DNA from: a virus
DNA length: 64,000 nt
IMG/VR virus record: IMGVR_UViG_3300036773_000096
Location: 56,180 to 120,179 of that record
Direction: 5' to 3' (one strand)
Positions 1 through 21,659 of the stretch are shown here, piece after piece. A model generated the notes under the pieces. That model worked only from the letters and a program-made list of their open reading frames with translations, made no database searches and was not told the origin of the DNA. Every line of letters begins with the position of its first letter. Position 1 is the stretch's first letter. A program made the position numbers and the translations under genes.

Positions 1-5
1 AGGCC

Positions 6-227
6 GTGACCGAACACGTCAGCGACGGGCCGTCCACCGCGCTCGTGCTCCGGGACCGCGCCGCACTGGTCGCCGACACCTTCGATGACCTGTTTCCCAA
101 GCTGGGCAAGCCACATAAGCGCAACCTCACCGGCAGCGGTGGCGGAGCTGGCGCCATCGCCGGACGCAACGCCGACATCGGCACCGGCCGCCGCGTGGCC
201 CGCACCCGGCAGGCGGCGATCCGATGA
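6..227 (+). CDS. hypothetical protein
   Basis: 73-aa ORF; its TGA overlaps the ATG of the next ORF (ATGA), suggesting coupling. Confidence 0.45.
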   Translation: MTEHVSDGPSTALVLRDRAALVADTFDDLFPKLGKPHKRNLTGSGGGAGAIAGRNADIGTGRRVARTRQAAIR

Positions 228-523
228 AACCCAGCGAGGGATGCGTGTGGAACGCCGTTGACCGGGAATGGCTGCTCACGGTCGTTGATGAAGCGCCGCT
301 GGTCTTCGGCGCGGTGGCCGCGCCTCCGCATGGGGATTCGCAGCGGGCCCCGGAACGCTACGACGGTGCCTACGCGACGCACGGTCCCGATCGGTCCCGC
401 GCATCAGTGCAGCCCTACACCCGCGAGTGCATGGTCGACTTCGATTGCGGCGGTTGCGCGTGCGGGTTCGTGATGGCGCCGTGCAATCACTGCATGGAGC
501 ACTGGGCGGAGGATCAGTCGTGA
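224..523 (+). CDS. small Cys-rich (putative Zn-binding) hypothetical protein
   Basis: C-terminal DCGGCACG...PCNHC; ATGA/GTGA overlaps at both ends. Confidence 0.55.
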   Translation: MKPSEGCVWNAVDREWLLTVVDEAPLVFGAVAAPPHGDSQRAPERYDGAYATHGPDRSRASVQPYTRECMVDFDCGGCACGFVMAPCNHCMEHWAEDQS

Positions 524-711
524 ACGGACCCCGTGAGCCCTTCGAGGTGGAGACCGCGAAAATCCTGGGTGGCATCACAGCTGGCTGCCTGGGGGTCACG
601 CTGGTCGTCTACACGGTGGCCCCGTTGGTGGTGACGGCCGTCCCCGCGCTCGTCACGGCGATCTTCCTGATCTTTTTTCTCTGGTCGCTATTCCGATTCA
701 CGATCGGCTGA
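520..711 (+). CDS. small 2-TM membrane protein
   Basis: GTG at 520 overlaps the upstream TGA; two hydrophobic stretches. Confidence 0.55.
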   Translation: MNGPREPFEVETAKILGGITAGCLGVTLVVYTVAPLVVTAVPALVTAIFLIFFLWSLFRFTIG

Positions 712-717
712 CCCGCC

Positions 718-927
718 ATGATCAGTCACTCCCGCAACGTGGTCGAATCAGCCGGCGGACTAGTCCTGACCCTCGACGACACCTACGGCAAGACCTGGCA
801 GCAAATCATCACCGAACTCGACTCCCTCGCCGCCGACGGGGAACAGGTCTACGTCGAGCCCGCCGCGCTCGCCGGACTCATCCGGGCACTACTCGCCTAC
901 GGAGCGCTGCCGGCCAGCGTCGGCTGA
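718..927 (+). CDS. hypothetical protein
   Basis: 69-aa ORF continuing the + strand cluster; converges on the head operon. Confidence 0.5.
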   Translation: MISHSRNVVESAGGLVLTLDDTYGKTWQQIITELDSLAADGEQVYVEPAALAGLIRALLAYGALPASVG

Positions 928-1197
928 CCCCGCGTCGGAGGTCGAGTTGTTGTCCTCTGCCCGAGAACCCTGCCAGGCAGAGAAATGCCCCACGGCGTTG
1001 GCGTAGCACGAGATCAGGCCCACCCACAGCACGGAGTCGTGCCACCACAGCACCGTCGGGATGATCGCTAAGAACCACACCCCCGTAGCCGTGGAATGAA
1101 ACCTCCGCCACGTCTTCGGGTTAGCCCACGCATCCTTGACCCGCTCGAAGCGGGGCCGACATTCCGAGCCCGGCCCCGCTCCGAACGTTGCCATCAC
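889..1197 (-). CDS. small membrane protein at the end of the head operon
   Basis: Hydrophobic core VWFLAIIPTVLWWHDSVLWVGLISCYAN; start overlaps the stop of 1194..1670. Confidence 0.6.
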   Translation of the reverse strand: MMATFGAGPGSECRPRFERVKDAWANPKTWRRFHSTATGVWFLAIIPTVLWWHDSVLWVGLISCYANAVGHFSAWQGSRAEDNNSTSDAGSADAGRQRSVGE

Positions 1198-1670
1198 ACG
1201 TAGACGTAGCTGGCGGCCAGCGTCAAAGTCCCGCTGTCGTCGGTCACCGTGGTGGCCACGGTGGCGGCGGAATGCGCACCGGAGACACCCGTGATGGTGG
1301 TGTTGTTGACCACAGTGAAGCTGGTCAACGCCACGCCACCCAGGGCGGCACCCGACGCACCGTCGAAGTTGACGCCCTTGATGGTCACCGGGGTGCCACC
1401 AGCGGCAGCGCCCGTAGCCGGACTGATCGACAGAATCGACGCGGCCGGGTACAGCGCGACGATGTCGGCCTTGCGCACCTGCTGGCCGGCCTTGTACTTG
1501 ATCCGGCGCTCCCCGTCGAAGGTCTTGAAATTGTCCTTATACGGGGCGTAGTTGAACGATTCGTAGATGTCCTCGTTGACGATGCAATCGGTCGCGGGAA
1601 CATCGGTGGTCTTGGCCTGCAACGCCGTGAGGCTCAGCACAGTGGTGCCATCGGCGGCCAGAATAGCCAT
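1194..1670 (-). CDS. IPT/TIG (Ig-like) domain protein, probable capsid decoration/accessory virion protein
   Basis: C-terminal SISPATGAAAGGTPVTIKGVNF...FTVVNNTTITG is a classic IPT/TIG pattern; AGGAG RBS; directly downstream of the capsid gene. Confidence 0.75.
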   Translation of the reverse strand: MAILAADGTTVLSLTALQAKTTDVPATDCIVNEDIYESFNYAPYKDNFKTFDGERRIKYKAGQQVRKADIVALYPAASILSISPATGAAAGGTPVTIKGVNFDGASGAALGGVALTSFTVVNNTTITGVSGAHSAATVATTVTDDSGTLTLAASYVYV

Positions 1671-1702
1671 TCGATTACTCCTATTCTTGTGCTAGTCGCT
1701 GG

Positions 1703-3061
1703 TCAGGGAGTGATCGCGGCGGCCAGGTTGACCTTGACCATGGCAGCGGGGCGGTAGACGGCCAAACCCAGCCGCTCTTCGGCCAGGACCACGATGGCGT
1801 TACGAATGAAGAAGTCCGCGTGCTGGTCAGCGGTGCGGATGTTGGACTGCATGCGGTCAAACACCTGCGCGCCCAACCCGAAAGCGCCGATCAGAGCGGT
1901 GCCCTCAGGACACGCCGGAGTGGCGACAACAGGCATCTGCCACAACCGCTTCTCGGCACCGGAAGTGACCGACCCCGCGACCAAATAGCGGCCCTGGGTG
2001 TCCTTGGTCAATTCCATGCGCTCCCAGTCGTATGGGTGCACAACTACGCCGGTCGGGTCATACTGCGCCAACATGACGCGCGTGGCGCCCCGGCGAATAG
2101 CATCGACGTAGGTCTCGTTAGTCGGTGCGTGATAGCCGCCGGAAGGGAACAATTGGATACCCGGCGTGTTGAAAATGCCCAGCAGGTTCTGGCCCGTGCC
2201 GTCACCTAGAAGCAGCTGCTGGTCTTCGACCAACCGCAGGCCATAAAGCAGCCGGGTGTCGATGATTCCGCGCAACTGCGGCTCGTCATCAAGAACGTTG
2301 CGCGACGCGGGCACCCAGTGGGCGAGAGTCCGGATCGGCGTGGTCTTGATGTTGAAGTGGATCTGCGACTTCGGCTTCAGGCCGAAGTTGTCGTTGGGCG
2401 GAGAGACCCCGTCACGCTCGGGAATCATCGCCGCCGCGTTGTCGCCCGCGTCGACGAACCCCAGCTCCTCAATGAACTCGATCATCACCGAGTTGGTGTT
2501 CATCTGCGGGAACAGGTCACGCACCCGCCAGGTGAGCATCGGAGCTGACACCATCGGCGCCCGCTGCACCGTGCCGAAACCAGGGTGGACAACAGTGCCG
2601 ATGCTGCCGGAATGAACATCCTTGTACTGCACGCCGTTGGGGGAGGTAATCTCCTCGCCCTCGATGGCGAACGCCTTGTCCATGAAACCGGAGTCACGGT
2701 GGCCCTTGAAAGCCTCCGACTCGACGAAACGCTGCCCCAGTGACTTATACTCGGGCATCGCCGTCACGCCGATACCGGCCGGGGATCCACCCATCGCCAC
2801 GGGCGTGCCGGCGGGGGCGTCGAGCCACTCGTCCAGGAGGCCCTTGCGCTCCAGGGCGGTGACGATGCCGTGAGTCTCCTCAGCCTTGGCCAGCAGGGCC
2901 TTGAACTCGGTGAGGGCTTCGGGCTTGACGTGCATGTTGCCTTCGCCGTCGAGCCAACCTGACTTGGTGATCTCGTCCATTTGTGCGTTGATGGACTTCA
3001 CTTCGACCTTGCCACGATCAATGAGGTCTTTGTCGTGGCGGTCGAGAGTAGGTGCGGTCAC
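1703..3061 (-). CDS. major capsid protein, HK97 fold
   Basis: 452 aa; N-terminal delta-domain-like helical region; HK97-family motifs IRTLAHWVPASRNVLDD, LLGDGTGQNLLGI, FIRNAIVVLAEERLGLAVYRPAA; AAGGGAG RBS. Confidence 0.95.
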   Translation of the reverse strand: MTAPTLDRHDKDLIDRGKVEVKSINAQMDEITKSGWLDGEGNMHVKPEALTEFKALLAKAEETHGIVTALERKGLLDEWLDAPAGTPVAMGGSPAGIGVTAMPEYKSLGQRFVESEAFKGHRDSGFMDKAFAIEGEEITSPNGVQYKDVHSGSIGTVVHPGFGTVQRAPMVSAPMLTWRVRDLFPQMNTNSVMIEFIEELGFVDAGDNAAAMIPERDGVSPPNDNFGLKPKSQIHFNIKTTPIRTLAHWVPASRNVLDDEPQLRGIIDTRLLYGLRLVEDQQLLLGDGTGQNLLGIFNTPGIQLFPSGGYHAPTNETYVDAIRRGATRVMLAQYDPTGVVVHPYDWERMELTKDTQGRYLVAGSVTSGAEKRLWQMPVVATPACPEGTALIGAFGLGAQVFDRMQSNIRTADQHADFFIRNAIVVLAEERLGLAVYRPAAMVKVNLAAAITP

Positions 3062-3267
3062 TGCCGCGTCTCCCTTGCGCTCGGTGTGTGTTCGAGCACG
3101 GGAAGCGGGTAGGCCGAAGCGAACCCCCAGCGTGCTCGGGGACTCGCACCGGTCAGTACCAGGCGCGTTGCGCGCAGTAGATCACTGGTGACGCAAATGG
3201 CGGCAGCGACACGCCGCCGGGTCAGCTACAGTGGAAGTCCCCCCGCTGGGGTAAGTAGCCCCAGCCC

Positions 3268-3298
3268 GACGGCCCCGATCCCCCCCGACGGGGCCGTC
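3268..3298 (-). terminator. stem-loop just downstream of the giant ORF
   Basis: GACGGCCCCG (3268-3277) and CGGGGCCGTC (3289-3298) form a 10-bp stem 9 nt after the TAG; no clear U-tract. Confidence 0.5.
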
Positions 3299-3306
3299 TC
3301 TAATTC

Positions 3307-6300
3307 CTAGCCCACCGTGGCGGTCGCCCGGCCCTGCAATGCACCCGTGCCGCACGACGGGCACGGCGCCGTGCCGACCATCCCGTAGGCGGGGATCATG
3401 ATGTCGTTGCCGCACTCCGGGCACGGGGCAACCTTTACGAGCATCCCGGATGCGTCCATGACGTAGCGGTAGCCCTCGATGACGGTGTCCTCGTAGGACT
3501 CCACATCTTCCGGCCCGTCGGTGTCGGGGCCGTCAGCGTCGGTGTCCGACGGTTTGGGGCCCTGCTGCGCGCGCAGCTTGAACTCGACACCCAGCCGAGC
3601 GGCGCGCAGCATCGTCAATTCATCGACCAGCGACCCGGCCGTCTTCTCCTCGACCACGAGGTGACGCTTCCACACCGCGTCGATTTTCGCCCGCTCCGCG
3701 TCCGCCTCGGCCTGTCGCGCGGCCTCTTTCGCCTTGCGGATCCGCTCGCGCTCCTCATAGGGCTTGGAGTAGTCCGGGGCCTCGTAGCCGCCGCTGTAGC
3801 CGGGCTGAATGCGACGGTTGATCGCCCAGTGCCCCTCGGCCCACGGGAAGTCCAGCGCCGCGAGGTCGTCGAGCAGGGCGTGAACGTTGTCGATGGCCCC
3901 GCGCGCATCATCGGGTCGGGGGATCAGCTCCCCGTCCGACGTCATGAACACTTCCAACTTGTTCCCGCTGCCCAGGGCGGCCAGAGTGCCATCCGGGGAC
4001 GCGGCGGCATCCGGGGACGCGGCGGGGATGGAGAACCGCTTCAGGCGGTCCTTTTCCGGCCCGGCGCTGCCCCGGCCCATGAGGGCGACCTTCGCGCTTG
4101 CCTTCGTCCGTGCCGTGGCTAGACCCTTAGTCGCCTCATCCTGCTGCGGGCCGGCGTCGCCTTTCATGCCGGCGGCCTCCATGGCGGCCTGCAACCGTGC
4201 TGACTCGGCCGTGGCTTCCTTCAGCGCGGCGGCGTGAGCGAACGGCACCCCGATGCGGGCCTTCATCGTCGCGGCTTCGCTGCGCAGCGACGCGGCCCGG
4301 TCAACCTGAAGGTCGCGGCGGAACTCCAGGTTGTTCAGCGAGTTCGCCAGGGTGGTGTTGATGCCCGCGCCGAGCTTCTCGACGTCGCTGGGGCTGATGT
4401 GCACGATGTTGCCGGGCAGGCCCTCCCAGGACAGTGTCATCCCAAAGCGCTTCGTGCCGAGCTTGTCGTAGTGGACCTCCGGCTGACCCAGCAGCACGTG
4501 ACCGCCGATGGTGCCCAGCGGCTTGGGCTTCGACCCGGCGTAGCCGTAGCGGCGTTCCCGGATCTGATCCTGCATCGCCGACTTCAGCAGGGTCGCCCCG
4601 TCGGCGCGGGTCCGGGCGGTGATGCCGGCGACGTTGATGGAGTACTTGTCACCGCTGATGTCGGTGCGCTTGGCGATCGCCGCGTTGTAGGCGGCGGCGT
4701 CGGCGTCGGCCTGCTCCGCGTTGGCCCCGTAGGAGACCACGTCGCGCCGTAGGTTGGTTTGGGTACGGGCGTGCTGGCGCTCCAGGCGGGTGAGCTTGCC
4801 GACCGTGACGTCGACTTTCGCCTTGTCCATGAGTAGCGGGTTGCCGGTGGCCAGGGCCTTGACTTCGGCGTAGGACAGGGCGGTGTCGCCGACGTCTTCG
4901 ATCTCTCGGACGTCGCCCATCTTGCCGCGCATGATCTGGTCGATGAACTTCTTTTTGCGCTCCAGGGTCTGCCACATATAGGCGTCGAAGCTGCCCTCGG
5001 TGACGTAGCGGAAGATCGCGACCTCTTTGTTGGTGTTGCCCTGGCGCATGATTCGGCCGTCGCGCTGCTCCACATCGCTGGGGCGCCACGGGGCGTCGAG
5101 GTGGTGCAGCGCGACCGCGCGGCGCTGCACGTTGGTGCCGACACCCATTTTTTCCGTCGACCCCACCAGCACGGAGACCTGACCGTTGCGGGCGGCGGCG
5201 AACAGCTCCGCTTTCTCCCGGTCGTTTTTGGCCTCGTGCATGAACCGGATCGACTTCGGGTCCATGCCACGGGCGGCCAGCTCGTCACGCAGCTTCTGGT
5301 AGGCGTTCATGCCGGCACCGCCGGGTGTGCCCATGTCGCAGAACACGATCTGCATGCCGCCCGGCGGCGGGTCGTCGCCACCAGCGGGGTCGTTGATGTC
5401 TTTCGGGACGGGCCGGTCTTTGTTCGCATCCCAGATCTTGTAGATGTTGTCGGCCGCCTCTTCGATCTTGCCCGGCTGGTGCTTCTCTCCCACCAGCGCC
5501 ATGCTCAGGGCGGCCTTGCGACCATCACCGGAGATCTTGAGCATGTTGTCGTCTTCGGGCTTGACCTTGCCGTTGCGGACATCCTCGGCGCGCTGGCCCA
5601 ACTCCTGGACGTAAGCCGACAACTCCGGCGACGCCGGCACGATGACGTTCTGCACCCCACCTGTGGCCAGGTCCGGGGTCTTCAGGTTCAGGTCATCGGC
5701 CATCTTCACATCAGCGAACAGGTGGAACAATCGCAGCAACTCAGGAACGTTGCGGAACTTCGCGAAGCGCGTGGTCTGGCGGAACCCCGTACCCTCAGGC
5801 TTGAGTTCCATCTCATCAACGGTCTTGCCGAACGTCGCCGCCCACTGGTCGAATGAGTGAATACCGGCCTCGCGCAACGTCTCAGGGTCGAGGAACCGTT
5901 GCATGATGTATGCCTGGGTGACCGTGTTGCGGATCGGGGTGCCCGTGGCGAACGTTCCCACCCGGCCCGACTTATTGTTCGCCCGCAGGTGCTCCATTTT
6001 CATGTGCAGGTCCGACGCCATGTCCGATCCGGTCGCCCCCGCGCCCTGGATGTTGGAGATGGTGCGCAGGTTGGAGTACATATGCGCCTCGTCGACACAC
6101 AGGTAGTCGATGCCGGTCTCCTCCCAGCTCACCCCGGCATCCTTAACCTTGTCCAGCTTCGCCTTCAGGGCCTCCTCAGCCTTGATCAGCGAGTTCTCCA
6201 TTTTCTTAACGGTCTTCTCTTTAGCGGAGTCCCCCGCCGCCGACGCCTGCGCAGACGCGAGCTGCGCTTTCATCGTCGCCATTTCCCGGTCAATGTAAGC

Positions 6301-9300
6301 CTGCATCGCCGGGCGAGACATCGGGATGGCTTCCATGGCCTTTTGAGTGAGGATAATGGCATCCCACTCACCCGTGGCCGCACGCGCGACGAACTCCCGG
6401 CGCTTATCCCCAGCCAGATCATCGGTACCGGCGGCCAGGACCTTAGCGTTGGGGTAGATCTGGAGGTATTCGCGGGAGAACTGCTCCAGCATGTGATTGG
6501 GAATGACAATGGCGGGCTTGTTCGCCAGGCCCAGTCGCTTCAGCTCAGCGGTGCCCATCGCCATCTCAGCGGTCTTGCCGGCGCCGACGACGTGAGCGAG
6601 CAACGCGCACGGCTCGGACACCATGCGGTTGACCGCCCCCACCTGATGATCGAAGGGGTCGAAGCTGTCGGCCATGCCGGGGAACACCCGTGGCATGTCG
6701 TCATAGGAGCGCAACCGGATCGCGTTGAACTGGTTGTTGTAGGCGGCCAGCAGGCGCCGGGTGCGATCGGAGTCCTCCCACAGCCACTCGGAGAACCGAT
6801 CCGACAACTCCTCGGCCTTGGCCTGGGCGGCAGTGGTCGCCTCCAGGTTCGGGTAGGACTTCGACTTGCCGTCGGCGTCTTTGATGGTGTCGCGGACCTG
6901 GATGGACCGCTGCTCCAGCAGGGACTGAATGATCTCCCCGGCGGAGAGCCGGTCAGTGCCCCACTCCTCAGTGGCCTTAGTGCCCCACTGGCCGCCTTCC
7001 ACGGTCCAAATGCCGCCACCTGACGTAGAGACCTTGATGGAGTGGTACGGGTCATCGCCGTCGGAAAGCAGCTCCACCATGAACGCGCGGACGTCGTCAG
7101 CGGGGATCCACGCGGCCCCCAGGCGCCCGTCGACCTCGTCGACACCCAGGTCCGGGGGGATCACCGCTTCCAGCGCGGTGACGTTCTTAGCGAAGCGGTC
7201 ATCACGCTTGGCGGCCTCACGGGCGGCGGCGAGCTTGCGGCGCACGTTGCCGGACAGGTACGCGGCGGCCGGCTCCAGGGAACCTTCGGAGCGAACCGCC
7301 TCACCGACGGAGTCCAGCGCGGAAGTGTCCGGGGCGTCGTCGAGGTTCAGCCCCGCTGAGATCCCGCCGAAACGCCCGCCGTCGCTGGCGATCCCGGATG
7401 CCTCTTCGATGTGGGCGCGGAACGCGGCGTCGGCGTCGGCCGCTGACAGTGGTGGCTGCTCGAAAACCAGATCACCCAGGCGCTCGCGTGCGCCGGCCTC
7501 ATCGGTGTCCAGCATGGTGGCGATCGCGGGGAGGTTCACCCGGCCGTAGGTGTCCATGGACAGCGCGACGGCGTCCTCGGGACTGTCAGCGTGGGTGGGG
7601 ATCTCCCGTGGGGTGCTGGCCCGTTTGCGGAAGATGCTGGTCTTGGATTCGGTGCCGGTCTCGGCGTCGTAGGCGCCCAGGGCGCGCACGATCGCCGACA
7701 TGGGGTCTTTGCGGAACAGGTTGCGCGCCGGGTCGGGCTTGCGCGCCCCCGATTTGGTCAGCGTGTAGTGGTTGACCGGCCCGTACTTTTTGGTGAACGC
7801 GTCGTAGCGGTCATTGAGCTGCTTGCGTAGTGCTTTGATGTCCGGGGAGTCCGACACCGACGCCGCTTCAGCGGCCAGCAGAGACCGCAGGGTGTCACGG
7901 AGGCCGATCAGCCCACGCACCGCCTCAGCGTGCTTGGCGGGCACGTCCAGTGCCACGGCGGTGCCCTGTTCGGCCTGGGTGAACGTGCCGTCTTCGTGGG
8001 CGGCGATGTGGCCTTCGTGGCGGTCATCATCCGGGGTGGTGAACGCCGTGAGGCCTTCCATGCGGGGTGACGCGGTGATCCCGTCGGCTTTCGCCGCTGC
8101 CACGATCCGGTCCAGCGCGGCCGGCAGGTCGGCCATCGTCTTGTCACCCTTGACGATCAGTGACCCGGTGCCGTACTGGCCCTTCTCTGCGGTGACCTCA
8201 CCCAACATTTGCTCGGGATGGGCAGTGAAGTAGTCGTTGATGGTGATCGTGTGGCCGTTGATGTCCTGATCGTGAGAGTTCACCCAGTCCTGCGACGTCA
8301 AAGGCGCCGCGTCGGGCTCCCGGCGTCGGAAGATCAGGGCGTCTTCGATGACGTCGGTGCCGGAGATCCGGGAGTGCCCCCCGGTGGGTAGGCGCACGGC
8401 GCCGACCAGGTCACCCAGCTCGGCCAGCTTCTTACGCGCGGCGGAGTCTTTCGAGTCCAGGGTGTAGCGCGACGTGAGCAGCGTGACCAGCCCGCCGGGC
8501 TTGGTCTGAGCCAGGGCCTTGGCGATGAAGTGGTTGTGGATCGACATTTTGCGGCCGGGGTTGTGCACCCGGTCGGTCAGGGCGAAGTCACCGAAGGGGA
8601 CGTTGCCGATCGCAGCGTCGAACGAGCCGGCCGGTAGCCGGGTGGCCGCGTAGGACTCGTTTCTTATCGTCGCGTGCGGGTAGAGGGCACGAGAGATCGC
8701 AGCTGTCGTCGAGTCCAACTCGACTCCGACCATGTCGGCGTGCTCGGGTGCGAATCCGATGAACGTTCCGGATCCGGAGCCGGGTTCGAGGACGCGACCA
8801 CCGTCGAACCCCAGATCTCCCATTGCCTTCCACAGCGATTGCACCACGCGGGGGTCGGTGTAGTGGGCGTTGAGGGTATTGCGGCGAGCCTCTGCCCATT
8901 CAGAGTCCGACAGCAGTCCACGCAGCTCCTCTCGTTGTTTCGCGTACTCGGGTTTGTTGTCGTCGAAGACTTCCGGCAGGCCACCCCAGCCGGCCCAACG
9001 CGCGAGCGTGGCCTGCTCTTCGGGGGTGGCGGCGCGGCGTTCGTCTTGCAACTGGCGCAGGGTGCGCAGCGCCGCGAGGTTCGCTTCGAGCTTCGACTTC
9101 TTACCGGCCGGGGCGAAGTCGTCCAGGCCGGTGGGGTGAAAGGACTCCCCGGTGTCGGGGATCGCATCGACCTGCCCGACGTCGGCGCTGGGCTGATCAG
9201 TTTCGGTTACGTCAGGTGCGCTGGGCGCTCCGGCAGTGTCGGCATCGCCGCCTTCGCGCTGTCCCGGTGCTGCTGCCTCAGTTCCTCCTGGGCTGCCTGG

Positions 9301-12300
9301 AAGTCCGCCAGTGCTTGAGTCAGCGCCTGATCCGTCGGATCCTCCGTCGGCACCATCGACGGGTCCGGTGTCGCCGGCAGTGGCAGCGCGTTGTCCGGGG
9401 CGTTCGGGGGCGGCGGGCTCATCAGGAACTCCCGCATCACCTTCTCCGTCGCCGCTTGCTGCGCGGCGTTCAGGCGCCCCAGCTTCTCTGGGTAGCTCTC
9501 CCCCTCCGGATCCGGCCCCGCCAGTTGGTCGGCTGTCTGCTGTATCTGCTGGCGCGCTTGCTCGGCCAGGTCGTCGAAGAACGTCTGCTTGTCCTTGATC
9601 CCCGCGTACGCCTGCGGCTGGTACGTCCGGTACCACGCTTCGGCTTGCCTCGCCAGAACTCCCACGATCATCACCCTCTCTCTGGGGCGATTGTGCACCC
9701 TTGGCGCGGTCGCGTTGTCCCGTGACGATTCCCCGCGCTTTATCCCACAGGCGCTGGCGCTCCGGATTCAGCTCTTGAGCCTGATCGAGGTGAGCGAATG
9801 CGCCCTCGAAATCGCCACCATCGGCGGCGGCGCGAGCTTCCCGCATGTGCTCCTGAGCGCGGGTAACGCGGTTGCCGTCGGCGGCTAGTCGGGCGTCGCG
9901 CTCATCGCGGCGAACCTGCTGCGAGTGCGGCGCGGGTTCAGTGGACGGCGCGGCGGTGCTCGGAACCGGACCCTTGCGGGGTGCGTCCACCGCGCCGCGC
10001 TTGCCATCCTCCGGCGCGCCCTTGCGGCGGCGCAACTCCGCGTCCACTGACCCGATCAGCGACTTGATGCGGTCGCGGTCCAGGCGCTTCGCGAGCCGAC
10101 GGGCTTTCGCGCCCTCGTTGCGCTTCACTCGGCGCTGCTCACGCAACGCCCCGGCTGCGGTAAACAGCATGCCGGCCTTGAGCTTCCCGGACGCGATGGC
10201 GGTATGGATGTCCCCGTCGCCGATGGCGGTGCGGATGTCGTCGAAGGCCGTGGAGTCCCCGTGGCGGCGCAGCATCTTCGCGAAGCGTTCAGCGGCGGCA
10301 GCGACCGCAGCGTCATCACGCGGAGTCGCGTTCAGAGCATCGCCCAGATCCTCAGCGGCACCCGCGACACCGGGACGGACCTTCGGGCCGGTATCTTCCG
10401 GGCCGGCCGGGGCGTCCGTCGCCGACACGGAAGACGCCCCGGCTTCCGCCTTCCGGGTCGCTGCCTCCCGCTTGCGTTCGGTGTCGCGACGGTGCAGTTC
10501 GTCCTGAAGCGCGAGTTCGTCAGTGAGGTCTTTGCGGGTTTCGGTCAGCTGCGGGTCGGTCTGGTCAGCCAGACCAGCCTCACCGGTCTCCAGCAGTGCC
10601 GCCACCCGCTCCTGGCGGTCGGCGACCTCCTGAGTGACCTCCTCCTGCCCGTCGGGGCCGTCCGACAGACCCAGGGCCTCGCCCCGGATGCGGTGGGCGG
10701 AGTCGGCGACCTCCGGCGGCACGGGCACGGTGCCGTCCGGGGTGCCGGCGGGCACTTCCCCGCCAGTGGACTCCGGTGCCTTCGGGTGCTCACCCAGCGG
10801 CAGCGTGGCGAAATCGTGGCGACCGATGCCGGCGGCGTCGCGGCGCTCGTAGTCGTCGGCGCGGTCTCGCATCCGCTTGGCTTCACCGTCAGACGCGCCA
10901 CCGCCCGTCTTGTCGGCGCGCTTGCGCAGTTCGTCGGGAGTGATGCGGCGCCGGATCTCCTCCGTGCGGACACTGTCGGCCATGTTGGCGCCGTGCCCAC
11001 CACGTCGGGTGGCTTCCCGCTTGACCGACGCAAGCTCAGTGTCGTCGAGCTGGCGCAGCGCGGCGTCCCGGTAGGCGGGGTGACTGCGCTTCTGGATTGC
11101 CGAGTAGTCGATCTGGCCCGGCGCGGGGCGCAGTGGGTCCGGCTTGACCTTCGGCCCTCCGGTGTCCTCCGGTGCGGTCGCCGGAGGCTGGTCACCGGGG
11201 GTGTCGGGGTTCTCGTCGGCGTGCAGCGCGCCCCGGACGTGGCGGGTGTACTCGGCCAGGTTCTCGTGCAGCAACTGGCGCTGCGGGGAACCCGCGCGGG
11301 GCTTGCCACCCACCTGGACCTTCGAGTTGTCGGCCTTCAGCGCCGCGACGATGCGCTGAAGGCCGTCCAGGGTGGCGTGCAAGGTAGCCGAGTCAGGTGC
11401 CTCGGCCATCTGGTTCTTAACCCGGATCAGTTCAGCGGCCAGCTTCTCCGGCGTTTTCGCCGACGGGGAGTCCAAACTGCCACGGGCGATGGTCGCCGCG
11501 TGGGCGAGCGCCGGGTCGCTCTGGTCGCGGGCGAGCGTCGCCAGCGCGGCGGACAGATGCGGGGCACTGACATGCCCAGACAGTTGGGCGAGCAAAGCGG
11601 AATCATCGGGGGCGGCCGGAGTGACCAGTGGGTGCGCGTCGACTTCGGGGGCCGGTGTCGATTCGGCGACGGTCGCGGCGGCGCGGCGGCGCGACTCGTC
11701 ACCGAAGCGGGTAGCGGCGAGCTTCGAGTCGGAGTACTCCAGGGAGTTCTTAGGCAGGTTGTTGCGCCGCGCCGTCATGTGCCGCTCGTGCGCGGCGGCG
11801 GACTCCGCCGCGAGCTGCGCGTCGGTCAGCTTCTCGGGGGCGTTGTGGTTCCCGGTGGGCTTGTATTCGTGCTCGGGCGCGGCCTGGGGCTTGTTCGGGT
11901 CGACAGCCGGGGTACCGGCGGACACCAGTGGCAGGGCAGAGCGGTTCTTAACCCCGCGTGTTTGGGTGCCGCCACCCGTGCCGTCGTCGTAGGTGATCAG
12001 TGTTTGCCCGGTGCGGCCCGGCTTGGCCTGGGTGACTTTGCCGCCATCGTGGCGCGACAGCATGACGTGGTCACCCGCGCGGACCTCACTGGCTTTCACC
12101 GTGGGGTAGCTGCCGGGCTTGATGCCGTAGGTGTTGACCAGCACCGGGGTGCCGTACTTGCGGTCATCAGCAGGCGCGGCCGGCGCTTCCGGAGTGGCTG
12201 GCGGCGTCTTTGGCAGGTCGTAACCGCCGGGGATGGTGTTCGCACCGGCCGTCACGGTGGTGGTGCCGTCGGCGTGGGCGGTGCCTACCGGATTCGGCTT

Positions 12301-13998
12301 AACGGGCGCGGCGGGCGCGGGCGGGTTAGCGTGCGGTGCTGCCCCCGGTGGAACCGCCGGAGCCGGTCCTGCGACGCCCGGCTTTTGCTGCCCGCCATCG
12401 GGGGCAGCGCCGGCCTGTGGAGTCACTGCCTGCGCGGCGACCGCGTCGAGACGCTTGGCGGCGACCTCCGATGGCAGCACCAGCAGGCTGGCGGCCATCT
12501 CGTGCGGGTCCTGATCGGGCGGCAGACCCATCCGCGTGAGGGCTTCCGCGAGGGCGTCACGATCCTGGGTGGCGATCGCCGATTCGGCGTCATCGCGGGC
12601 GCCGGCCGCGTCGACTTCACCGACGGGCGCGGGGGCGGAGAACGGGGTGATCTGAGACAGGACGTCGCGGACGGCCTGCTGGTCGGCGCTGCGCTGCTTG
12701 GCGTTGGCCCACCGCTTCTTACGCGCTTCGATGTCATCCCAGGGGATGCCGATCTGGGTGAGGTGATCCAGCGCGGCGTCGATCTGGTCGGGGGGCGCGT
12801 CGGGGGGGATCTGGGCGGCGTTGGACAGGCCGCTGCCCGCATTGGCGGTGTCGACGATTGTCCAACCGGCGCCTCCGTGGACGGCGGCGAGCTGCCCATC
12901 GGTGGACGCGTGGACATCAGCGCCGGGGGCGGCGAACTGGGCGAGCATCGCCAGGGAGTTCTCGGCCAGGCTGGAGTCACCGAACGCCGGGGTCTTCTGG
13001 ACCTGCTCATTGAGTTCCTGGTACCGCTGATGCAGCGCGGCTAGTGCTTTGGAGACACCGGGGCCGGGCGGCGCGAGCGGGGCTAGGGCAGGGTCACCGG
13101 GCGCGCCGGCAGCACCGGGTGTGCCCGGCTTGGCGGGCATTCCGGGGCCACCGTGGAGCTGCTGGGGCTTGACCGGCCCACTGGCGCCTTCCGGTGCGGT
13201 GGTGGCCGCGATCTGTGCGGTGGTGGGTGTCTGGCCGCTGCGGGGACGCATGCCGGCTTTGATGGGGGTGCCTAGGGGCATGCCCCAGAACTCGGCGTCG
13301 CGCACGACACGGATGCCCTTGTACTCCACGCCATCAAGCACAGTGGTCCCCTCGTCGGTGACACCGGAACGAGACTCATCGTACCAGATGTCCCCGACAC
13401 CTTCGGAGAGAGATTTCACCCCCGTGAGGTGCGCGAGCTTATGTGCCCCGTGCAATACCTGGGACCACTCATACAAATCATAGTCATGCAGGTAACGCTT
13501 ACCGCTGCGCATCCGATAACCACCGGGGCGCACCTTATACCCAATGGAGAAACATTCCTCCGGCCCGTAGAACTTAGCGTCCGCGTAAGCGTCGCGGCCG
13601 ATCTCTTTATCCAGGTTGTACTTCGCCTTGATCAGCAGACCGCCCGCGTTGGCCGGCCACGGCTCACCCTGCGGAGTCGTCTTAGGCAACTGCGGGTCAC
13701 CCGGCATGAGTTCCTTCGACCACACCAGCCGCGACACCTTCGCTGACCAGTTGTGCGACATCACGCCCTTGGGCTTCAGCCGCTTGATCGCGGTGGCCAG
13801 CGAGCCCGGCACGATGACGTCGCCGACCTCATCGACCACCCCAGAGACCGCGACCAGCGCCGTGATCGTGCCGTCGGCGTCGTCGTGACCGATCACCCCG
13901 GTCAGCGGGGAGGTCATCTCCGCTGTGGGCAGCGCCTTCCACTCCAGCGCATCCATGTCCTCCGGAGTGTCGACGTCATCCGGGAACGTTGTGGTCAC
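3307..13998 (-). CDS. giant 3,563-aa fusion: HK97-type prohead protease + Pro/Ala-rich and helical cargo region + DarB-like N6-adenine methyltransferase + SF2 (SNF2-like) helicase + C-terminal Zn finger
   Basis: Protease-like N-terminus (VDEVGDVIVPG, SHNW, FSIGY, LYEWSQV). MTase motif I VLEPGSGSG (~8760-8795) and motif IV GNVPF (~8591-8608). Helicase Walker A AHVVGAGKT (~6571-6597), DEAH (~6081-6095), ATGTP, and motif VI QRDGRIMRQGN (~5040-5068). C-terminal CPECG...CPSCG. The GTG start overlaps the upstream TGA. Confidence 0.9.
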   Translation of the reverse strand: MTTTFPDDVDTPEDMDALEWKALPTAEMTSPLTGVIGHDDADGTITALVAVSGVVDEVGDVIVPGSLATAIKRLKPKGVMSHNWSAKVSRLVWSKELMPGDPQLPKTTPQGEPWPANAGGLLIKAKYNLDKEIGRDAYADAKFYGPEECFSIGYKVRPGGYRMRSGKRYLHDYDLYEWSQVLHGAHKLAHLTGVKSLSEGVGDIWYDESRSGVTDEGTTVLDGVEYKGIRVVRDAEFWGMPLGTPIKAGMRPRSGQTPTTAQIAATTAPEGASGPVKPQQLHGGPGMPAKPGTPGAAGAPGDPALAPLAPPGPGVSKALAALHQRYQELNEQVQKTPAFGDSSLAENSLAMLAQFAAPGADVHASTDGQLAAVHGGAGWTIVDTANAGSGLSNAAQIPPDAPPDQIDAALDHLTQIGIPWDDIEARKKRWANAKQRSADQQAVRDVLSQITPFSAPAPVGEVDAAGARDDAESAIATQDRDALAEALTRMGLPPDQDPHEMAASLLVLPSEVAAKRLDAVAAQAVTPQAGAAPDGGQQKPGVAGPAPAVPPGAAPHANPPAPAAPVKPNPVGTAHADGTTTVTAGANTIPGGYDLPKTPPATPEAPAAPADDRKYGTPVLVNTYGIKPGSYPTVKASEVRAGDHVMLSRHDGGKVTQAKPGRTGQTLITYDDGTGGGTQTRGVKNRSALPLVSAGTPAVDPNKPQAAPEHEYKPTGNHNAPEKLTDAQLAAESAAAHERHMTARRNNLPKNSLEYSDSKLAATRFGDESRRRAAATVAESTPAPEVDAHPLVTPAAPDDSALLAQLSGHVSAPHLSAALATLARDQSDPALAHAATIARGSLDSPSAKTPEKLAAELIRVKNQMAEAPDSATLHATLDGLQRIVAALKADNSKVQVGGKPRAGSPQRQLLHENLAEYTRHVRGALHADENPDTPGDQPPATAPEDTGGPKVKPDPLRPAPGQIDYSAIQKRSHPAYRDAALRQLDDTELASVKREATRRGGHGANMADSVRTEEIRRRITPDELRKRADKTGGGASDGEAKRMRDRADDYERRDAAGIGRHDFATLPLGEHPKAPESTGGEVPAGTPDGTVPVPPEVADSAHRIRGEALGLSDGPDGQEEVTQEVADRQERVAALLETGEAGLADQTDPQLTETRKDLTDELALQDELHRRDTERKREAATRKAEAGASSVSATDAPAGPEDTGPKVRPGVAGAAEDLGDALNATPRDDAAVAAAAERFAKMLRRHGDSTAFDDIRTAIGDGDIHTAIASGKLKAGMLFTAAGALREQRRVKRNEGAKARRLAKRLDRDRIKSLIGSVDAELRRRKGAPEDGKRGAVDAPRKGPVPSTAAPSTEPAPHSQQVRRDERDARLAADGNRVTRAQEHMREARAAADGGDFEGAFAHLDQAQELNPERQRLWDKARGIVTGQRDRAKGAQSPQREGDDRGSSGEASRSVVPDVPAAGVRGDQGQADVLRRPGRASAPADTADSRPTGGAGSGGGELPREAGAPERRAASGDGEGDAGVPDEPAAPERPGQRAATAGDTGPVDGADGGSDGSGADSSTGGLPGSPGGTEAAAPGQREGGDADTAGAPSAPDVTETDQPSADVGQVDAIPDTGESFHPTGLDDFAPAGKKSKLEANLAALRTLRQLQDERRAATPEEQATLARWAGWGGLPEVFDDNKPEYAKQREELRGLLSDSEWAEARRNTLNAHYTDPRVVQSLWKAMGDLGFDGGRVLEPGSGSGTFIGFAPEHADMVGVELDSTTAAISRALYPHATIRNESYAATRLPAGSFDAAIGNVPFGDFALTDRVHNPGRKMSIHNHFIAKALAQTKPGGLVTLLTSRYTLDSKDSAARKKLAELGDLVGAVRLPTGGHSRISGTDVIEDALIFRRREPDAAPLTSQDWVNSHDQDINGHTITINDYFTAHPEQMLGEVTAEKGQYGTGSLIVKGDKTMADLPAALDRIVAAAKADGITASPRMEGLTAFTTPDDDRHEGHIAAHEDGTFTQAEQGTAVALDVPAKHAEAVRGLIGLRDTLRSLLAAEAASVSDSPDIKALRKQLNDRYDAFTKKYGPVNHYTLTKSGARKPDPARNLFRKDPMSAIVRALGAYDAETGTESKTSIFRKRASTPREIPTHADSPEDAVALSMDTYGRVNLPAIATMLDTDEAGARERLGDLVFEQPPLSAADADAAFRAHIEEASGIASDGGRFGGISAGLNLDDAPDTSALDSVGEAVRSEGSLEPAAAYLSGNVRRKLAAAREAAKRDDRFAKNVTALEAVIPPDLGVDEVDGRLGAAWIPADDVRAFMVELLSDGDDPYHSIKVSTSGGGIWTVEGGQWGTKATEEWGTDRLSAGEIIQSLLEQRSIQVRDTIKDADGKSKSYPNLEATTAAQAKAEELSDRFSEWLWEDSDRTRRLLAAYNNQFNAIRLRSYDDMPRVFPGMADSFDPFDHQVGAVNRMVSEPCALLAHVVGAGKTAEMAMGTAELKRLGLANKPAIVIPNHMLEQFSREYLQIYPNAKVLAAGTDDLAGDKRREFVARAATGEWDAIILTQKAMEAIPMSRPAMQAYIDREMATMKAQLASAQASAAGDSAKEKTVKKMENSLIKAEEALKAKLDKVKDAGVSWEETGIDYLCVDEAHMYSNLRTISNIQGAGATGSDMASDLHMKMEHLRANNKSGRVGTFATGTPIRNTVTQAYIMQRFLDPETLREAGIHSFDQWAATFGKTVDEMELKPEGTGFRQTTRFAKFRNVPELLRLFHLFADVKMADDLNLKTPDLATGGVQNVIVPASPELSAYVQELGQRAEDVRNGKVKPEDDNMLKISGDGRKAALSMALVGEKHQPGKIEEAADNIYKIWDANKDRPVPKDINDPAGGDDPPPGGMQIVFCDMGTPGGAGMNAYQKLRDELAARGMDPKSIRFMHEAKNDREKAELFAAARNGQVSVLVGSTEKMGVGTNVQRRAVALHHLDAPWRPSDVEQRDGRIMRQGNTNKEVAIFRYVTEGSFDAYMWQTLERKKKFIDQIMRGKMGDVREIEDVGDTALSYAEVKALATGNPLLMDKAKVDVTVGKLTRLERQHARTQTNLRRDVVSYGANAEQADADAAAYNAAIAKRTDISGDKYSINVAGITARTRADGATLLKSAMQDQIRERRYGYAGSKPKPLGTIGGHVLLGQPEVHYDKLGTKRFGMTLSWEGLPGNIVHISPSDVEKLGAGINTTLANSLNNLEFRRDLQVDRAASLRSEAATMKARIGVPFAHAAALKEATAESARLQAAMEAAGMKGDAGPQQDEATKGLATARTKASAKVALMGRGSAGPEKDRLKRFSIPAASPDAAASPDGTLAALGSGNKLEVFMTSDGELIPRPDDARGAIDNVHALLDDLAALDFPWAEGHWAINRRIQPGYSGGYEAPDYSKPYEERERIRKAKEAARQAEADAERAKIDAVWKRHLVVEEKTAGSLVDELTMLRAARLGVEFKLRAQQGPKPSDTDADGPDTDGPEDVESYEDTVIEGYRYVMDASGMLVKVAPCPECGNDIMIPAYGMVGTAPCPSCGTGALQGRATATVG
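9207..9665 (-). CDS. overprinted gene in the +1 frame of the giant ORF; resembles TnpV-like small proteins that precede DarB-like genes in actinobacterial ICEs/plasmids
   Basis: GAGAGG RBS 9 nt before GTG 9665; G/C-ending codons in this frame and A/T-ending codons in the giant frame; sequence LARQAEAWYRTYQPQAYAGIKDKQTFFDDLAEQARQQI...YPEKLGRLNAAQQAATEKVMREFL. Confidence 0.7.
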   Translation of the reverse strand: MGVLARQAEAWYRTYQPQAYAGIKDKQTFFDDLAEQARQQIQQTADQLAGPDPEGESYPEKLGRLNAAQQAATEKVMREFLMSPPPPNAPDNALPLPATPDPSMVPTEDPTDQALTQALADFQAAQEELRQQHRDSAKAAMPTLPERPAHLT

Positions 13999-15863
13999 GT
14001 CACGGCCTCCGCCGATGCCGCCTCGAACAGCGCACCCCAGCCACCGTCGTCAGCACCGGGGTCCGGGTCGCCCGACGGCACCCCGTCGACCGGGTCCGCC
14101 TCGGGCTCGGCCTCCTCGACCACCACAGGGTCGGGGTCGGCGACGAGCTTGGAACCCAGTGCGGCCAGCGCGGCGGTGCGCTCCACCTCACTGGGTGGCT
14201 CGGCGTCCTCATCGGTGTCGCCCTGGGCTTCGGCCAGCTCCGCGAGATAACCCTCCACCCACGGCTCATCGAAAATCTGACCCCAGTCGTCGATGCCGGC
14301 GAACATCTCCGCTAAGTCCGGCTCGGCCACAGCGAGACTTTTGACCTCCGTGGCATCCCAGTCCCAGTCAACCAGCGACTTCACACCGTAAGTGATCGGC
14401 TTGCCGGGCTTGGCTTTCGCGGTGTGCGCGTTCTTGCCCGGCCACTCACCCGTGGCGATCTTGTGAATGTTCGCGGTCAAACCGTTCAGAATGCGCGGAT
14501 TGTGCACGTATTTCGCCAGATGCCGGCGCAGGCGCTTGAAATCACCGGGAATGCCCGGCTTCCACTTCGCCCGGCCTTTCGCGGTGCGAGCCCAGAAGTT
14601 ACGCAATCGCGACGCCCCCGGCGACGGTGAGGTGACCTTGACCTCGACCCCGTCCTCCAGGGACTTCCCGTGAAATGAGTGCGGCTCCAGGTAGCCGATC
14701 TTGGCGTGCACGTGGGGCTCGGCGCCCAACCGGATCGCCTCGGCCGCGAGGTGTTCTTTGTGCTTGGCCTTGTGGCTGTCGCGGACCTTCGAGTGTGCCC
14801 GGATCGCCGCGTGCAGCGCGGCCAGGTGCGGCAGCGGTGCGGGCGCGGCATTGCCCGGTGCCCACGACTTCGTCTCAACCTCATCCTCAGGTGCAGACTT
14901 CGTGCCGCTGCCGTCGGTGCTGGCACCTTCCAGCGTGTCGATGCGGGACAGGGTGTGCGCGCTGGCCCCCAGGCGCTTCGCGTGGCCCCGTAATACCCGC
15001 ACCCGCGCCGGGCGATCCTCAGTGGGACAGTTCCCGTGCTCCTCGATCGCCCGATGCAGATCATCAATGGACTCCAGGCGCGGCCCGTCATTGACCACCC
15101 GGCCCATGTTCATCTCCCGCACAGCGGCCTTGACCTCCGCACGGCCCATCATGTCCCCAGCCCACGACAGTCCCGCCGGCCCGCACGCCCCCGCGACCCA
15201 GATCAGCCCCGACATATCCAGGGCCTTGCCCTCAATCACCTCCTGCGCGTACGGACCGTCCAGGCCCTCCGCCGCGTCGCGCACCGCCTTCGGCGGTGTG
15301 AACGTGATCGACTTGACCTGTGGTCTGGGCATGCCCGCCTCCTGATCTCCCAACGGCACATCGAGCACGTCACCAGCGAGCGCGAGGCGCAGCGTGGTGA
15401 AGCGCACCGGGCCGGTGTAGCTCAACGCGTCGATGCTGATTCCGTAGCCGGCCGTCACATGCCACAGGACAGGGGTGTGCTGGTCGGGTAGATCCGGGTA
15501 ATCCTCACCCGTAGCCATGACCCAGGTGGCCCATTTGCGCAGTGGGTCAAGGTCGGGCGTGTCGCCCACCAGGTAGACCGCACACGGCTCTTTGTCGCTG
15601 CCGGCGTCCCCGTCGGGGTTCAACGTGGCGTGACCAATGATCCGAGCGGTGACCGCGTCCAGGCCCGGCCCGCTCGCCGTGATCAGCTCTTTCAAGTGCT
15701 GGGCTTGCCCCGCCGGCCACTGAGCGACGTCATCGCCCAGGTAGAGCAGGGTCAGGTGGATCTGATCGGCAGGATCACCGCCGTCGACAACCAGCTCACC
15801 GGGATTGTCGGGGATCAGTGCGAGCATGCCCCCGCTGTAGGTCTTCGGCTCCTCGTCAGTCAC
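13995..15863 (-). CDS. head-associated multidomain protein with an N-terminal 2H phosphoesterase (LigT/Acb1-like) domain
   Basis: Two HxT motifs (IHLTLLYLG, WHVTAGY); later domain RLRNFW...GDFKRLRRHLAKY...GLTANIHKIATGEWPG recalled from actinophage head proteins; GTG 15863 overlaps the upstream stop and its TGA overlaps the giant ORF start. Confidence 0.8.
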   Translation of the reverse strand: MTDEEPKTYSGGMLALIPDNPGELVVDGGDPADQIHLTLLYLGDDVAQWPAGQAQHLKELITASGPGLDAVTARIIGHATLNPDGDAGSDKEPCAVYLVGDTPDLDPLRKWATWVMATGEDYPDLPDQHTPVLWHVTAGYGISIDALSYTGPVRFTTLRLALAGDVLDVPLGDQEAGMPRPQVKSITFTPPKAVRDAAEGLDGPYAQEVIEGKALDMSGLIWVAGACGPAGLSWAGDMMGRAEVKAAVREMNMGRVVNDGPRLESIDDLHRAIEEHGNCPTEDRPARVRVLRGHAKRLGASAHTLSRIDTLEGASTDGSGTKSAPEDEVETKSWAPGNAAPAPLPHLAALHAAIRAHSKVRDSHKAKHKEHLAAEAIRLGAEPHVHAKIGYLEPHSFHGKSLEDGVEVKVTSPSPGASRLRNFWARTAKGRAKWKPGIPGDFKRLRRHLAKYVHNPRILNGLTANIHKIATGEWPGKNAHTAKAKPGKPITYGVKSLVDWDWDATEVKSLAVAEPDLAEMFAGIDDWGQIFDEPWVEGYLAELAEAQGDTDEDAEPPSEVERTAALAALGSKLVADPDPVVVEEAEPEADPVDGVPSGDPDPGADDGGWGALFEAASAEAVT

Positions 15864-16101
15864 AGGCGTCACCGGGGAAGTGCCAGGTTCCCCCGGCCAT
15901 CGCCTCGTCATAGGTGCACTCGTTGTGGTGCGTTCCCGTAGGCGTGATGACGTAGAAGTTCCACATGCTGGCGCCCAGCTGCTCAACGGCGATCGCTGGG
16001 CGGCAGCGCGGCCGGTAGACCTGCGTCCCGTCGATCAGGACGGGGCTACCGTGAGCGCGATAGTGCACATGGTCGCCGATAGTGAGCTGCACGTAGCGCA
16101 T
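15856..16101 (-). CDS. conserved small phage hypothetical protein
   Basis: IGDHVHYRAHGSP...CRPAIAVE...TPTG...GTWHFP pattern recalled from actinophage small proteins; start trimmed to ATG 16101. Confidence 0.6.
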   Translation of the reverse strand: MRYVQLTIGDHVHYRAHGSPVLIDGTQVYRPRCRPAIAVEQLGASMWNFYVITPTGTHHNECTYDEAMAGGTWHFPGDACD

Positions 16102-16282: not shown

Positions 16283-16675
16283 TTAACGGGCTTGCGACAT
16301 CCGACCCCGGCACAGTGAGCACACCGCGAAGACGTAAGTCAGGCCCTGAAGCTTCGCCATCGCCCCGGTGAGGTGATCAGTGACGGTGTTCTCGACGACG
16401 TGACCGCACCCGTCACAGGTGAGGTTCGCGACGGTCTGGGAACTGGGTGCGGTCACCAGATCGGTGCACAGACCGCAGACGACGAGCCCGCACTTCGCGG
16501 CGGACATCACCACGGGCATGCCGTTGCGGGGAGTGGGGTTGTGCATGCACGTCTTGGACTTGCCGTCGTGCCACAGCGCCCGATCGGCTTCGATCTTGTC
16601 ACGGAGCCACAGGGGTAGGTCTTCGATGCGCTGGAACTGGCTACTGCGCTTGAGCTTCGATCTACGAAGTCCCAT
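16283..16675 (-). CDS. Cys-rich hypothetical protein
   Basis: AGGGGA RBS before ATG 16675; CxxC pairs (CGLC, CDGC, CSLC). Confidence 0.6.
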   Translation of the reverse strand: MGLRRSKLKRSSQFQRIEDLPLWLRDKIEADRALWHDGKSKTCMHNPTPRNGMPVVMSAAKCGLVVCGLCTDLVTAPSSQTVANLTCDGCGHVVENTVTDHLTGAMAKLQGLTYVFAVCSLCRGRMSQAR

Positions 16676-16905
16676 TGGATCCCCTAGCGGGTGTTGGTAG
16701 CGGCCGGAACGGGCGGGTGGGGCGGCCACCCCGCCCAGTGCCACTAGGCAGGGGGACCGCCCCGGAACAGCTCCGCCCGTGTTCCGACGAGGGAGAACGG
16801 AGCTGTCCCTTCCTTACACCGGCTCCCACCCGGCGATTGGGCCTGCGCCAGTCGTGAGCGATCCTTCCCCGATGCTCACTTCCGGAGGTCCCTGGGAGTC
16901 TTGGG

Positions 16906-17898: not shown

Positions 17899-17923
17899 TG
17901 AGATCTCCAGTTGTCGGTGCGGT

Positions 17924-17965
17924 CGGAACACTTTCGAGTGTAGCGGGGCTGCGCTATTGCCGCAA
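17924..17965 (-). promoter_or_regulatory. SigA/HrdB-type promoter TTGCGG-N17-TACACT followed by N7-GTTCCG
   Basis: Read directly upstream of the DUF932 gene; member of the repeated promoter class. Confidence 0.65.
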
Positions 17966-17967
17966 CT

Positions 17968-17993
17968 GTAACGCAGCTCCGCAACTCTGCGAT
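17968..17993 (+). promoter_or_regulatory. ECF (SigD/BldN-type) promoter GTAACG-N16-CGAT
   Basis: Exact motif 45 nt upstream of ATG 18038, in the matching orientation. Confidence 0.65.
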
Positions 17994-18037
17994 GTAGCGG
18001 GCGTAAGCGTTCCGACCCAACCGAAAGCGAGCACCAC

Positions 18038-21525: not shown

Positions 21526-21659
21526 AACCACCTCCGAAGATCGGACGGGTCAATGTAGCCACGCCGGGAGGCCCGGAACGCATCGACGCGCCGGGGATGG
21601 GAGGCCCGGCGCGTCGATAGGAGGGGTGATGCTGGCGGGTGGTGGTTCGCCAACGCCGA

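Follow-up and report, generated by a model that had tools for sequence, protein, structure and literature searches.

A giant gene of an uncultured soil phage of actinobacteria (genome ~120 kb) was found to encode a prohead protease and a DarB-like methylase-helicase in one polypeptide of 3,563 amino acids (aa). The gene lies in a window of 64,000 nucleotides (nt), the right half (positions 56,180 to 120,179) of the IMG/VR virus record IMGVR_UViG_3300036773_000096 (120,179 bp), and all coordinates are positions in this window. We propose that the giant protein is a capsid-maturation protease built as a carrier polyprotein, which would load the DarB-like enzyme, its cargo, into the head for injection; we give this reading a probability of roughly 60%. 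The comparative evidence favours a capsid-loading role for the fusion, because the protein appears to be the sole prohead protease of the phage, it keeps the tail of standalone proteases, its relatives carry varied enzymes on the same protease and motifs resembling the capsid cleavage site stand at its domain borders. The virus record carries direct terminal repeats and its completeness by CheckV is 100%. The G+C content is 64-71%.

The giant frame, its protease and its DarB-like cargo

The giant protein is read from a single unbroken frame, with zero internal stops, in the protease slot before the capsid gene. The start codon is preceded, at a distance of 7 nt, by a strong Shine-Dalgarno sequence GGAGG (14005-14009), and it overlaps in a GTGA with the stop codon of the upstream gene. 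No in-frame ATG or GTG occurs across aa 1540-1650, and the methylase-helicase part has no start codon of its own. The initial annotation, made from the DNA letters, had described this frame, a protease-like N-terminus, complete methylase and helicase motifs without a separate start codon and a terminal zinc (Zn) finger, and all of these were recovered in our study. The features of the giant gene, from its start to its end, are as follows.

3307-13998, minus strand: giant gene (P0001), 3,563 codons, GTG start at 13996-13998, stop at 3307-3309
13933-13998, minus strand: N-terminal leader, aa 1-22, ending in the candidate cleavage motif LEWK22; disordered in the model, with a predicted local distance difference test score (pLDDT) of ~50
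13402-13893, minus strand: S78/HK97-type prohead protease domain, aa 36-199; His82 at 13753-13755, Ser151 (FSIGY) at 13546-13548
13240-13329, minus strand: candidate release site VEYK227, then the conserved linear motif VRDAEFWGMPLGTPIKAGM, aa 224-253
12703-12945, minus strand: small ~70-aa domain "modA", aa 352-432; reciprocal hidden Markov model (HMM) matches with aa 3322-3392
10759-11661, minus strand: lineage-specific insert, aa ~780-1080; alignment occupancy 0-0.25, missing from most relatives
10009-10722, minus strand: helical "mid-module", aa 1093-1330; conserved, of no known family
9208-9699, minus strand: dual-coding linker, aa 1434-1597, rich in G/R/P/A/D; G+C at the third codon position (GC3) 0.38-0.5, at the first (GC1) 0.85
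9207-9671, minus strand: nested small gene, 154 aa, read in the +1 frame of the giant gene from an ATG (9669-9671) and GAGAGG of its own
7309-9141, minus strand: N6-adenine DNA methyltransferase (MTase) part, aa ~1620-2230; phrog_11801, E value (E) 3e-190
4669-6681, minus strand: SF2/SNF2-type helicase part, aa ~2440-3110; phrog_10089 (DarB-like antirestriction), E 0; Helicase_C
3823-4035, minus strand: second ~70-aa copy "modC", aa 3322-3392; reciprocal HMM matches with aa 352-432
3574-3585, minus strand: candidate cleavage motif VEFK3475, on the N-terminal side of the tail at ~25 aa from it; E and K unchanged across four phage loci
3310-3501, minus strand: C-terminal tail, aa 3500-3563, ESYED..Y.MDA.G.L..CPxCG..CPxCG Zn ribbon

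The protease domain matched phrog_80 (head maturation protease) with E 1e-13. Its identity was 43-49% to capsid maturation proteases annotated in phages of Gordonia, Brevibacterium and Streptomyces, and 45-52% to standalone proteins of 260-420 aa carrying Pfam S78 (PF04586). A search with the domain gave 1,530 library matches at E<=1e-3. His82 and Ser151, which we take to be the equivalents of His65 and Ser114 of HK97 gp4, were invariant in all 28 sequences compared, standalone proteases included. The N-terminus, which on the reading of the initial annotation should model as an HK97-type protease, was found to fit the assemblin fold, with pLDDT >90 for aa 40-190. The best structural match of the model was T4 gp21 (Z 10.7, root-mean-square deviation 2.8, 126 aligned); herpes assemblins gave Z 6-9, and the first unrelated fold gave Z 4.6. 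In the BFVD viral structure search 206 matches were found at E<=0.001, down to 1e-22, and the named ones were almost all prohead proteases. The membership of the domain in S78 stands on PHROG, the homologues and the fold. Elsewhere in the complete genome no S78-like (PHROG 80), S49, ClpP or S77 match was found. The N-terminus of the giant protein is the phage's own and only detectable prohead protease, and cleavage of the capsid protein by it is predicted.

In the cargo, LEPGSG (aa 1737-1742) and NVPF (aa 1799-1802) represent the MTase motifs, and the helicase motifs GAGKT (aa 2472-2476), DEAH (aa 2636-2639) and QRDGR (aa 2978-2982) come after them. BLASTP of the cargo (aa ~1620-3110) against P1 DarB gave three collinear segments (E 1e-21, 7e-22 and 7e-15), in which the methylase motifs and both helicase lobes were aligned; the MTase segment was 27% identical over 226 aa (E 1e-21) and spanned motifs I and IV. 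The DarB-like proteins of cultured phages were 32-37% identical to the cargo, and none of them was fused to a protease. By analogy with DarB, the methylase-helicase would have an anti-restriction function. A phmmer search of the whole giant protein against the PDB sequences gave zero matches, and in a literature search no paper was found on a protease-DarB fusion or on an N-terminal, sole-protease form.

The fusion, for which the initial annotation had proposed a search among related phages, was found again in at least 19 metagenomic relatives. In these proteins, obtained by a length-restricted search, the protease, methylase and helicase stood in one polypeptide, the protease part was 44-97% identical to that of the giant protein and the domain order was permuted in two. 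A protease-domain search without a length filter gave five close phage loci, and in all five the frame continued to the end of the available sequence. The capsid gene directly followed the giant homologue in three relatives. Relatives stem from Actinomycetota, for example Pseudonocardiaceae.

Chassis modules, tail and candidate cleavage sites

The initial annotation had described the ~1,200 aa between the protease and the methylase as Pro/Ala-rich and helical. Such a region is present, but it is not uniform: conserved modules, a lineage-specific insert and the G/R/P/A/D-rich dual-coding stretch were found inside it. The linear motif at aa 224-253 was found in every cargo-carrying relative. Among the best matches of the length-unbiased search, the motif after K227 (VRDAEFWGMPLGTPI) was carried mostly by long, cargo-carrying forms, and the protease-search matches that extended to query aa ~254 were mostly long proteins. 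The mid-module accompanied the N-terminal protease in most long relatives regardless of the cargo, and it was often C-terminal there. No usable match to the mid-module, aa 260-520 or the tail was found in the Atlas, Pfam or PHROG. Self-BLAST of the giant protein gave no internal repeat, whereas reciprocal HMMs did detect the modA/modC pair. This ~70-aa domain (S.DG.L ... IPW), of no known family, flanks the central region on both sides and is present in three copies in some relatives; in one relative (P0019) a copy stands at the extreme C-terminus.

The tail (the last ~60 residues) was conserved in 16 of 20 fusion proteins, including this one. An HMM built from the 16 tails matched the C-termini of the standalone S78 proteases P0105, P0104 and P0092 with E 6e-15 to 7e-12, whereas the best of 1,450 shuffled decoys gave E 1.2. 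Since standalone proteases of ~300 aa end in homologous tails, the cargo is lodged within what is a protease gene. A relative of 1,634 aa (P0114) matched the giant protein at aa 1-586, 712-791, 934-1326 and 3457-3553; it keeps the protease, the chassis and the tail, and contains unrelated sequence in place of the methylase-helicase.

The capsid protein contained a predicted maturation site, PEYK106/SLGQRF (the slash marks the cut; PEYK/SLG at 2735-2755), which closes its variable, delta-like N-terminal region. The capsid protein gp5 of HK97 is cut at K103/SLG. The site aligned with MEAK/SLG in Cantare and IEEK/SLG in Gilgamesh, and was conserved in two of three cultured relatives. Three phi-E-x-K motifs at the domain borders of the giant protein (K22, K227 and K3475) are predicted as cleavage sites. 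In the leader motif LEWK22 the E-x-K was kept in 14 of 14 relatives, and L-E-x-K was found in standalone homologues too. The VEYK227 motif, just past the protease domain, was present in 12 of the 14 relatives and in nearly all homologues, and VEFK3475 was retained in 8-11 of the 14 amid a poorly conserved stretch.

Other enzymes were found on the same protease. Among the best 150 length-unbiased representatives, 28 were at least 1,500 aa long, and the protease was almost always N-terminal in them. The partners of the protease in the relatives included zeta toxin, ArdC-N, MPTase, UvrD helicases, GNAT, ferritin, PG-binding, 2H phosphoesterase and NUDIX domains. Two metagenomic proteins carried the S78 protease with a ferritin-like domain (P0145), which recalls encapsulin cargo, and with GNAT and 2H esterase domains (P0135). 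In the Streptomyces phage Gilgamesh, an S78-NUDIX fusion annotated only as "hydrolase" lies directly before the capsid gene, and a separate gene of 4,624 aa, of no known family, lies three genes upstream (positions 1-10635 and 11947-13872 of the Gilgamesh locus L004). Gilgamesh is a tractable model for protease-borne cargo.

The nested gene in the linker

The linker of the giant frame at aa 1434-1597 showed a compositional anomaly, because a conserved small gene is nested there in another frame; composition-based checks flag the giant frame owing to this gene. The giant frame was open through the linker in all five phage loci, and the small gene was present in this phage and in four relatives. 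Among these loci the nested protein was 45-64% identical in amino acids, versus 33-53% for the giant-frame translation, and the nested open reading frame (ORF) ended where the methylase homology begins. The fold model of the nested protein was weak (pLDDT 63). In the protein Atlas its nearest clusters were "TnpV protein family" (0.92/0.90), whereas Pfam TnpV gave no match, and the TnpV-like label is one of language-model features only.

The same arrangement was found in bacteria. Standalone methylase-helicases, 41-49% identical to the cargo, were present in more than 568 bacterial loci, mostly on chromosomes and plasmids of Actinomycetota, and 80 of these loci were kept for a survey of the cassette. 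The small gene had a homologue immediately upstream of the methylase-helicase gene in 48 of the 80. Of 45 adjacent pairs, 44 combined a small gene in the +1 frame with a large frame that was open across the whole of it, whereas synonymous shuffles predict ~31%. An overlap of stop and start codons was considered as the cause of the fixed nested frame, and it does not explain it. In the homologous part of the phage loci, synonymous shuffles with the genes' own codons left the giant frame open in 18-89% of the trials, a test which is weak alone; the bacterial survey is the strong test of frame openness. The evidence argues that the giant frame through the linker is kept open by selection. Since 44 of 45 cassettes from bacteria share this nesting, it is, like the long 5' extension, an old trait of the cassette, which the phage captured whole. 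The nested gene and the 5' region of the methylase-helicase gene may form an undescribed, long-lived overlapping gene pair.

Proposed mechanism, head module and known systems

In the proposed carrier, the N-terminal S78 protease is followed by the chassis (linear motif, small domain and mid-module), the complete DarB-like cassette and the Zn-ribbon tail. The cassette would have been derived from an actinobacterial mobile element along with the nested small gene, and the giant frame would run on into the methylase by way of the long 5' extension that the cassette already possessed. The chassis and the tail would carry the entire protein into proheads during their assembly, as in herpesvirus pUL26 and with the tail of HK97 gp4. 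The protease would cut the delta domain of the capsid protein and its own phi-E-x-K sites, freeing the cargo in the head, and the cargo would exit with the DNA and shield it from restriction in the manner of P1 DarB. A wider reading is tentative, and we consider it somewhat more doubtful than probable: the S78 protease and chassis of the clade (post-protease motif, mid-module and Zn-ribbon tail) would be a general, exchangeable, pUL26-like loader of enzymes that are freed at phi-E-x-K and injected, and the DarB-like genes of Actinomycetota would contain an obligatory nested gene in the +1 frame, an undescribed pair which the phage inherited.

Several points weigh against the carrier. Packaging, cleavage and injection are all steps that we infer. 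A protein of 375 kDa at the usual copy number of a protease would fill a large share of the head; it would have to be either of low copy or mostly degraded. The loading into each capsid that the initial annotation proposed would thus crowd the head at such a copy number. The E-x-K motif is weak and shows no overall enrichment, with 13 copies in the giant protein versus 10.8 expected. The Pfam S78 model PF04586 gave no match on the domain, whether in the N-terminal 250 aa or in a search of the whole genome.

The alternative that survives best, though unlikely, is that the methylase-helicase does its work late, inside the cell that produces the phage, where it might for instance methylate progeny DNA at the packaging site; the protease and chassis would then only tether it to proheads or time its expression. 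The giant gene lies in the late head operon, an enzyme near the packaging site could mark DNA before its entry into the head, and ejection of the cargo is a step that we only infer. However, P1 DarB, a homologue, exerts its action once it has been injected (PMC9024508, PMC5512222), the toxins, 2H esterases and NUDIX domains on the same protease in relatives fit the next host better, and encapsidation is what the tail and the cleavage-like motifs suggest.

It is rather improbable that two products are made, mostly a short protease-chassis form, by a shift into the nested +1 frame with its stop at 9207 or by early processing, and a minority of full-length protein with a low copy number of cargo. 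Such an arrangement would solve the crowding problem, and the conserved +1-frame ORF ends exactly at the start of the methylase homology; however, this ORF comes with a GAGAGG and an ATG of its own, frameshifts by +1 or -2 are rare and the same nesting occurs in bacteria without an upstream protease. That the N-terminal domain is a dead protease, serving only as a handle for capsid targeting, with maturation by another enzyme or none, would agree with the silence of the Pfam model; we regard it as highly improbable, since His82 and Ser151 are invariant across the 28 homologues, zero other protease families were found in the complete genome and the capsid protein retains a delta-like domain and a K/SLG site. 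An assembly or sequencing artefact, in which two or three genes were joined by indels or in a chimeric contig and to which the break in GC3 periodicity at aa 1434-1597 might point, is barely credible, since the same continuous frame was found in independent assemblies from other samples and the break is explained by the conserved nested gene, which occurs in 44 of 45 bacterial loci as well.

The giant gene is part of a head module on the minus strand, in the order portal, MuF-like protein, DUF932 protein, small Zn-ribbon ORF, 663-aa 2H protein, giant gene and major capsid protein. The neighbours of the giant gene are as follows.

19852-21531, minus strand: portal, head module
18546-19886, minus strand: MuF-like protein, without a detectable cargo domain
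16906-18165, minus strand: DUF932 protein, of a family common in conjugative elements
16283-16744, minus strand: small Zn-ribbon ORF, head module
13995-15986, minus strand: upstream neighbour of 663 aa, translationally coupled to the giant gene; 2H phosphoesterase domain with the motifs HLT and HVT
1703-3061, minus strand: major capsid protein of 452 aa, delta-like domain at its N-terminus; PF05065, E 4e-40

The DUF932 and MuF-like proteins are placed between the portal and the cargo genes. The 663-aa 2H protein is probably a second cargo, made as a separate protein and delivered by the head, because a relative (P0131) carries its homologue fused behind the protease domain; it is a candidate degrader of cyclic or 2'-5' nucleotide signals. 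The same protein was considered as a second protease and rejected: its PHROG label "protease" comes from the fused relatives, and no similarity to the N-terminus of the giant protein was found. The capsid gene starts 245 nt downstream of the giant gene. Two G+C-rich hairpins without a T run were found between the stop of the giant gene and the capsid gene at 3225-3300 on the minus strand (minimum free energy -43 kcal/mol, z -1.9), and they may uncouple the expression of the capsid gene from that of the giant gene.

Previous studies reported that P1 DarB (250 kDa) belongs to the head and bears a capsid-targeting signal, that it is believed to enter the cell and that it protects DNA from type I restriction; its loading requires a 30-residue N-terminal signal and the helper proteins Hdf, DarA, DdrA/B and Ulx, and it is loaded last (PMC9024508). 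The cargo of the giant protein resembles DarB in its MTase and SF2 helicase, which stand in the same order with significant collinear similarity, and darB adjoins portal and protease genes in P1. However, DarB is a separate protein of 2,255 aa, whereas the enzyme here lies within the protease polypeptide, covalently joined to it, and its N-terminus is not free in the primary product.

Iyer et al. (2017) reported assemblin-like peptidases in polyvalent proteins, always C-terminal and rare, which are predicted to process these proteins during assembly (PMC5512222). Like the polyvalent proteins, the giant protein is a large multidomain phage protein in a head-gene context with a methylase-helicase dyad; it combines protease, methylase, helicase and modules of no known family between the portal/MuF genes and the capsid gene. 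However, its peptidase is N-terminal (aa 36-199 of 3,563), as the protease is in nearly all long relatives, it is the only prohead protease of the phage, and the tail that closes the protein is that of the protease. The polyprotein interpretation of the initial annotation was right in its domain anatomy, which is conserved, whereas the idea of such a fusion has a precedent and is not new in kind (PMC5512222). The fusion is a variant of polyvalent or packaged anti-restriction proteins. The new elements are the homology of the tail to protease tails, the phi-E-x-K motifs at the borders, the dual coding at aa 1434-1597 and the alternative enzymes on the same protease.

The giant protein also shares its plan, an N-terminal assemblin-fold protease, a long internal region and a C-terminal element, with herpesvirus pUL26, lambda C/Nu3 and HK97 gp4. 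In these proteins the C-terminal element binds the capsid protein, and self-cleavage occurs at release and maturation sites. They carry scaffold only, whereas the giant protein carries enzymes, and the binding by its tail and its cleavage sites are predicted. Gilgamesh gp52 (S78 and NUDIX) and gp27 of the Gordonia phage DalanDe (1,633 aa) contain a homologous protease, 43-46% identical, directly before the capsid gene. However, both are without a methylase-helicase, the protease of DalanDe is near the C-terminus and the 4,624-aa giant gene of Gilgamesh (gp48) is separate from its protease gene. Green fluorescent protein fused to a segment of gp4 was reported to enter HK97 particles (PMC11626933). 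In the MuF-fused effectors and the internal proteins of T4 with a capsid-targeting sequence, an element of head assembly serves as the address for capsid-borne proteins (PMC5512222, PMC9024508); these proteins are carried by MuF or by a short peptide that can be cleaved, whereas here the carrier would be the protease itself.

With its conservation from bacteria through to the phage, the nested gene provides a clear example of dual coding that has lasted long. If the proposed carrier is true, it would be a second, covalent route for loading large counter-defence enzymes into heads, without a targeting peptide or helper proteins. The route would be reused by the relatives for many enzymes, leading to testable predictions on what actinophages inject, and it would offer a natural template for placing foreign proteins in capsids of the HK97 type.

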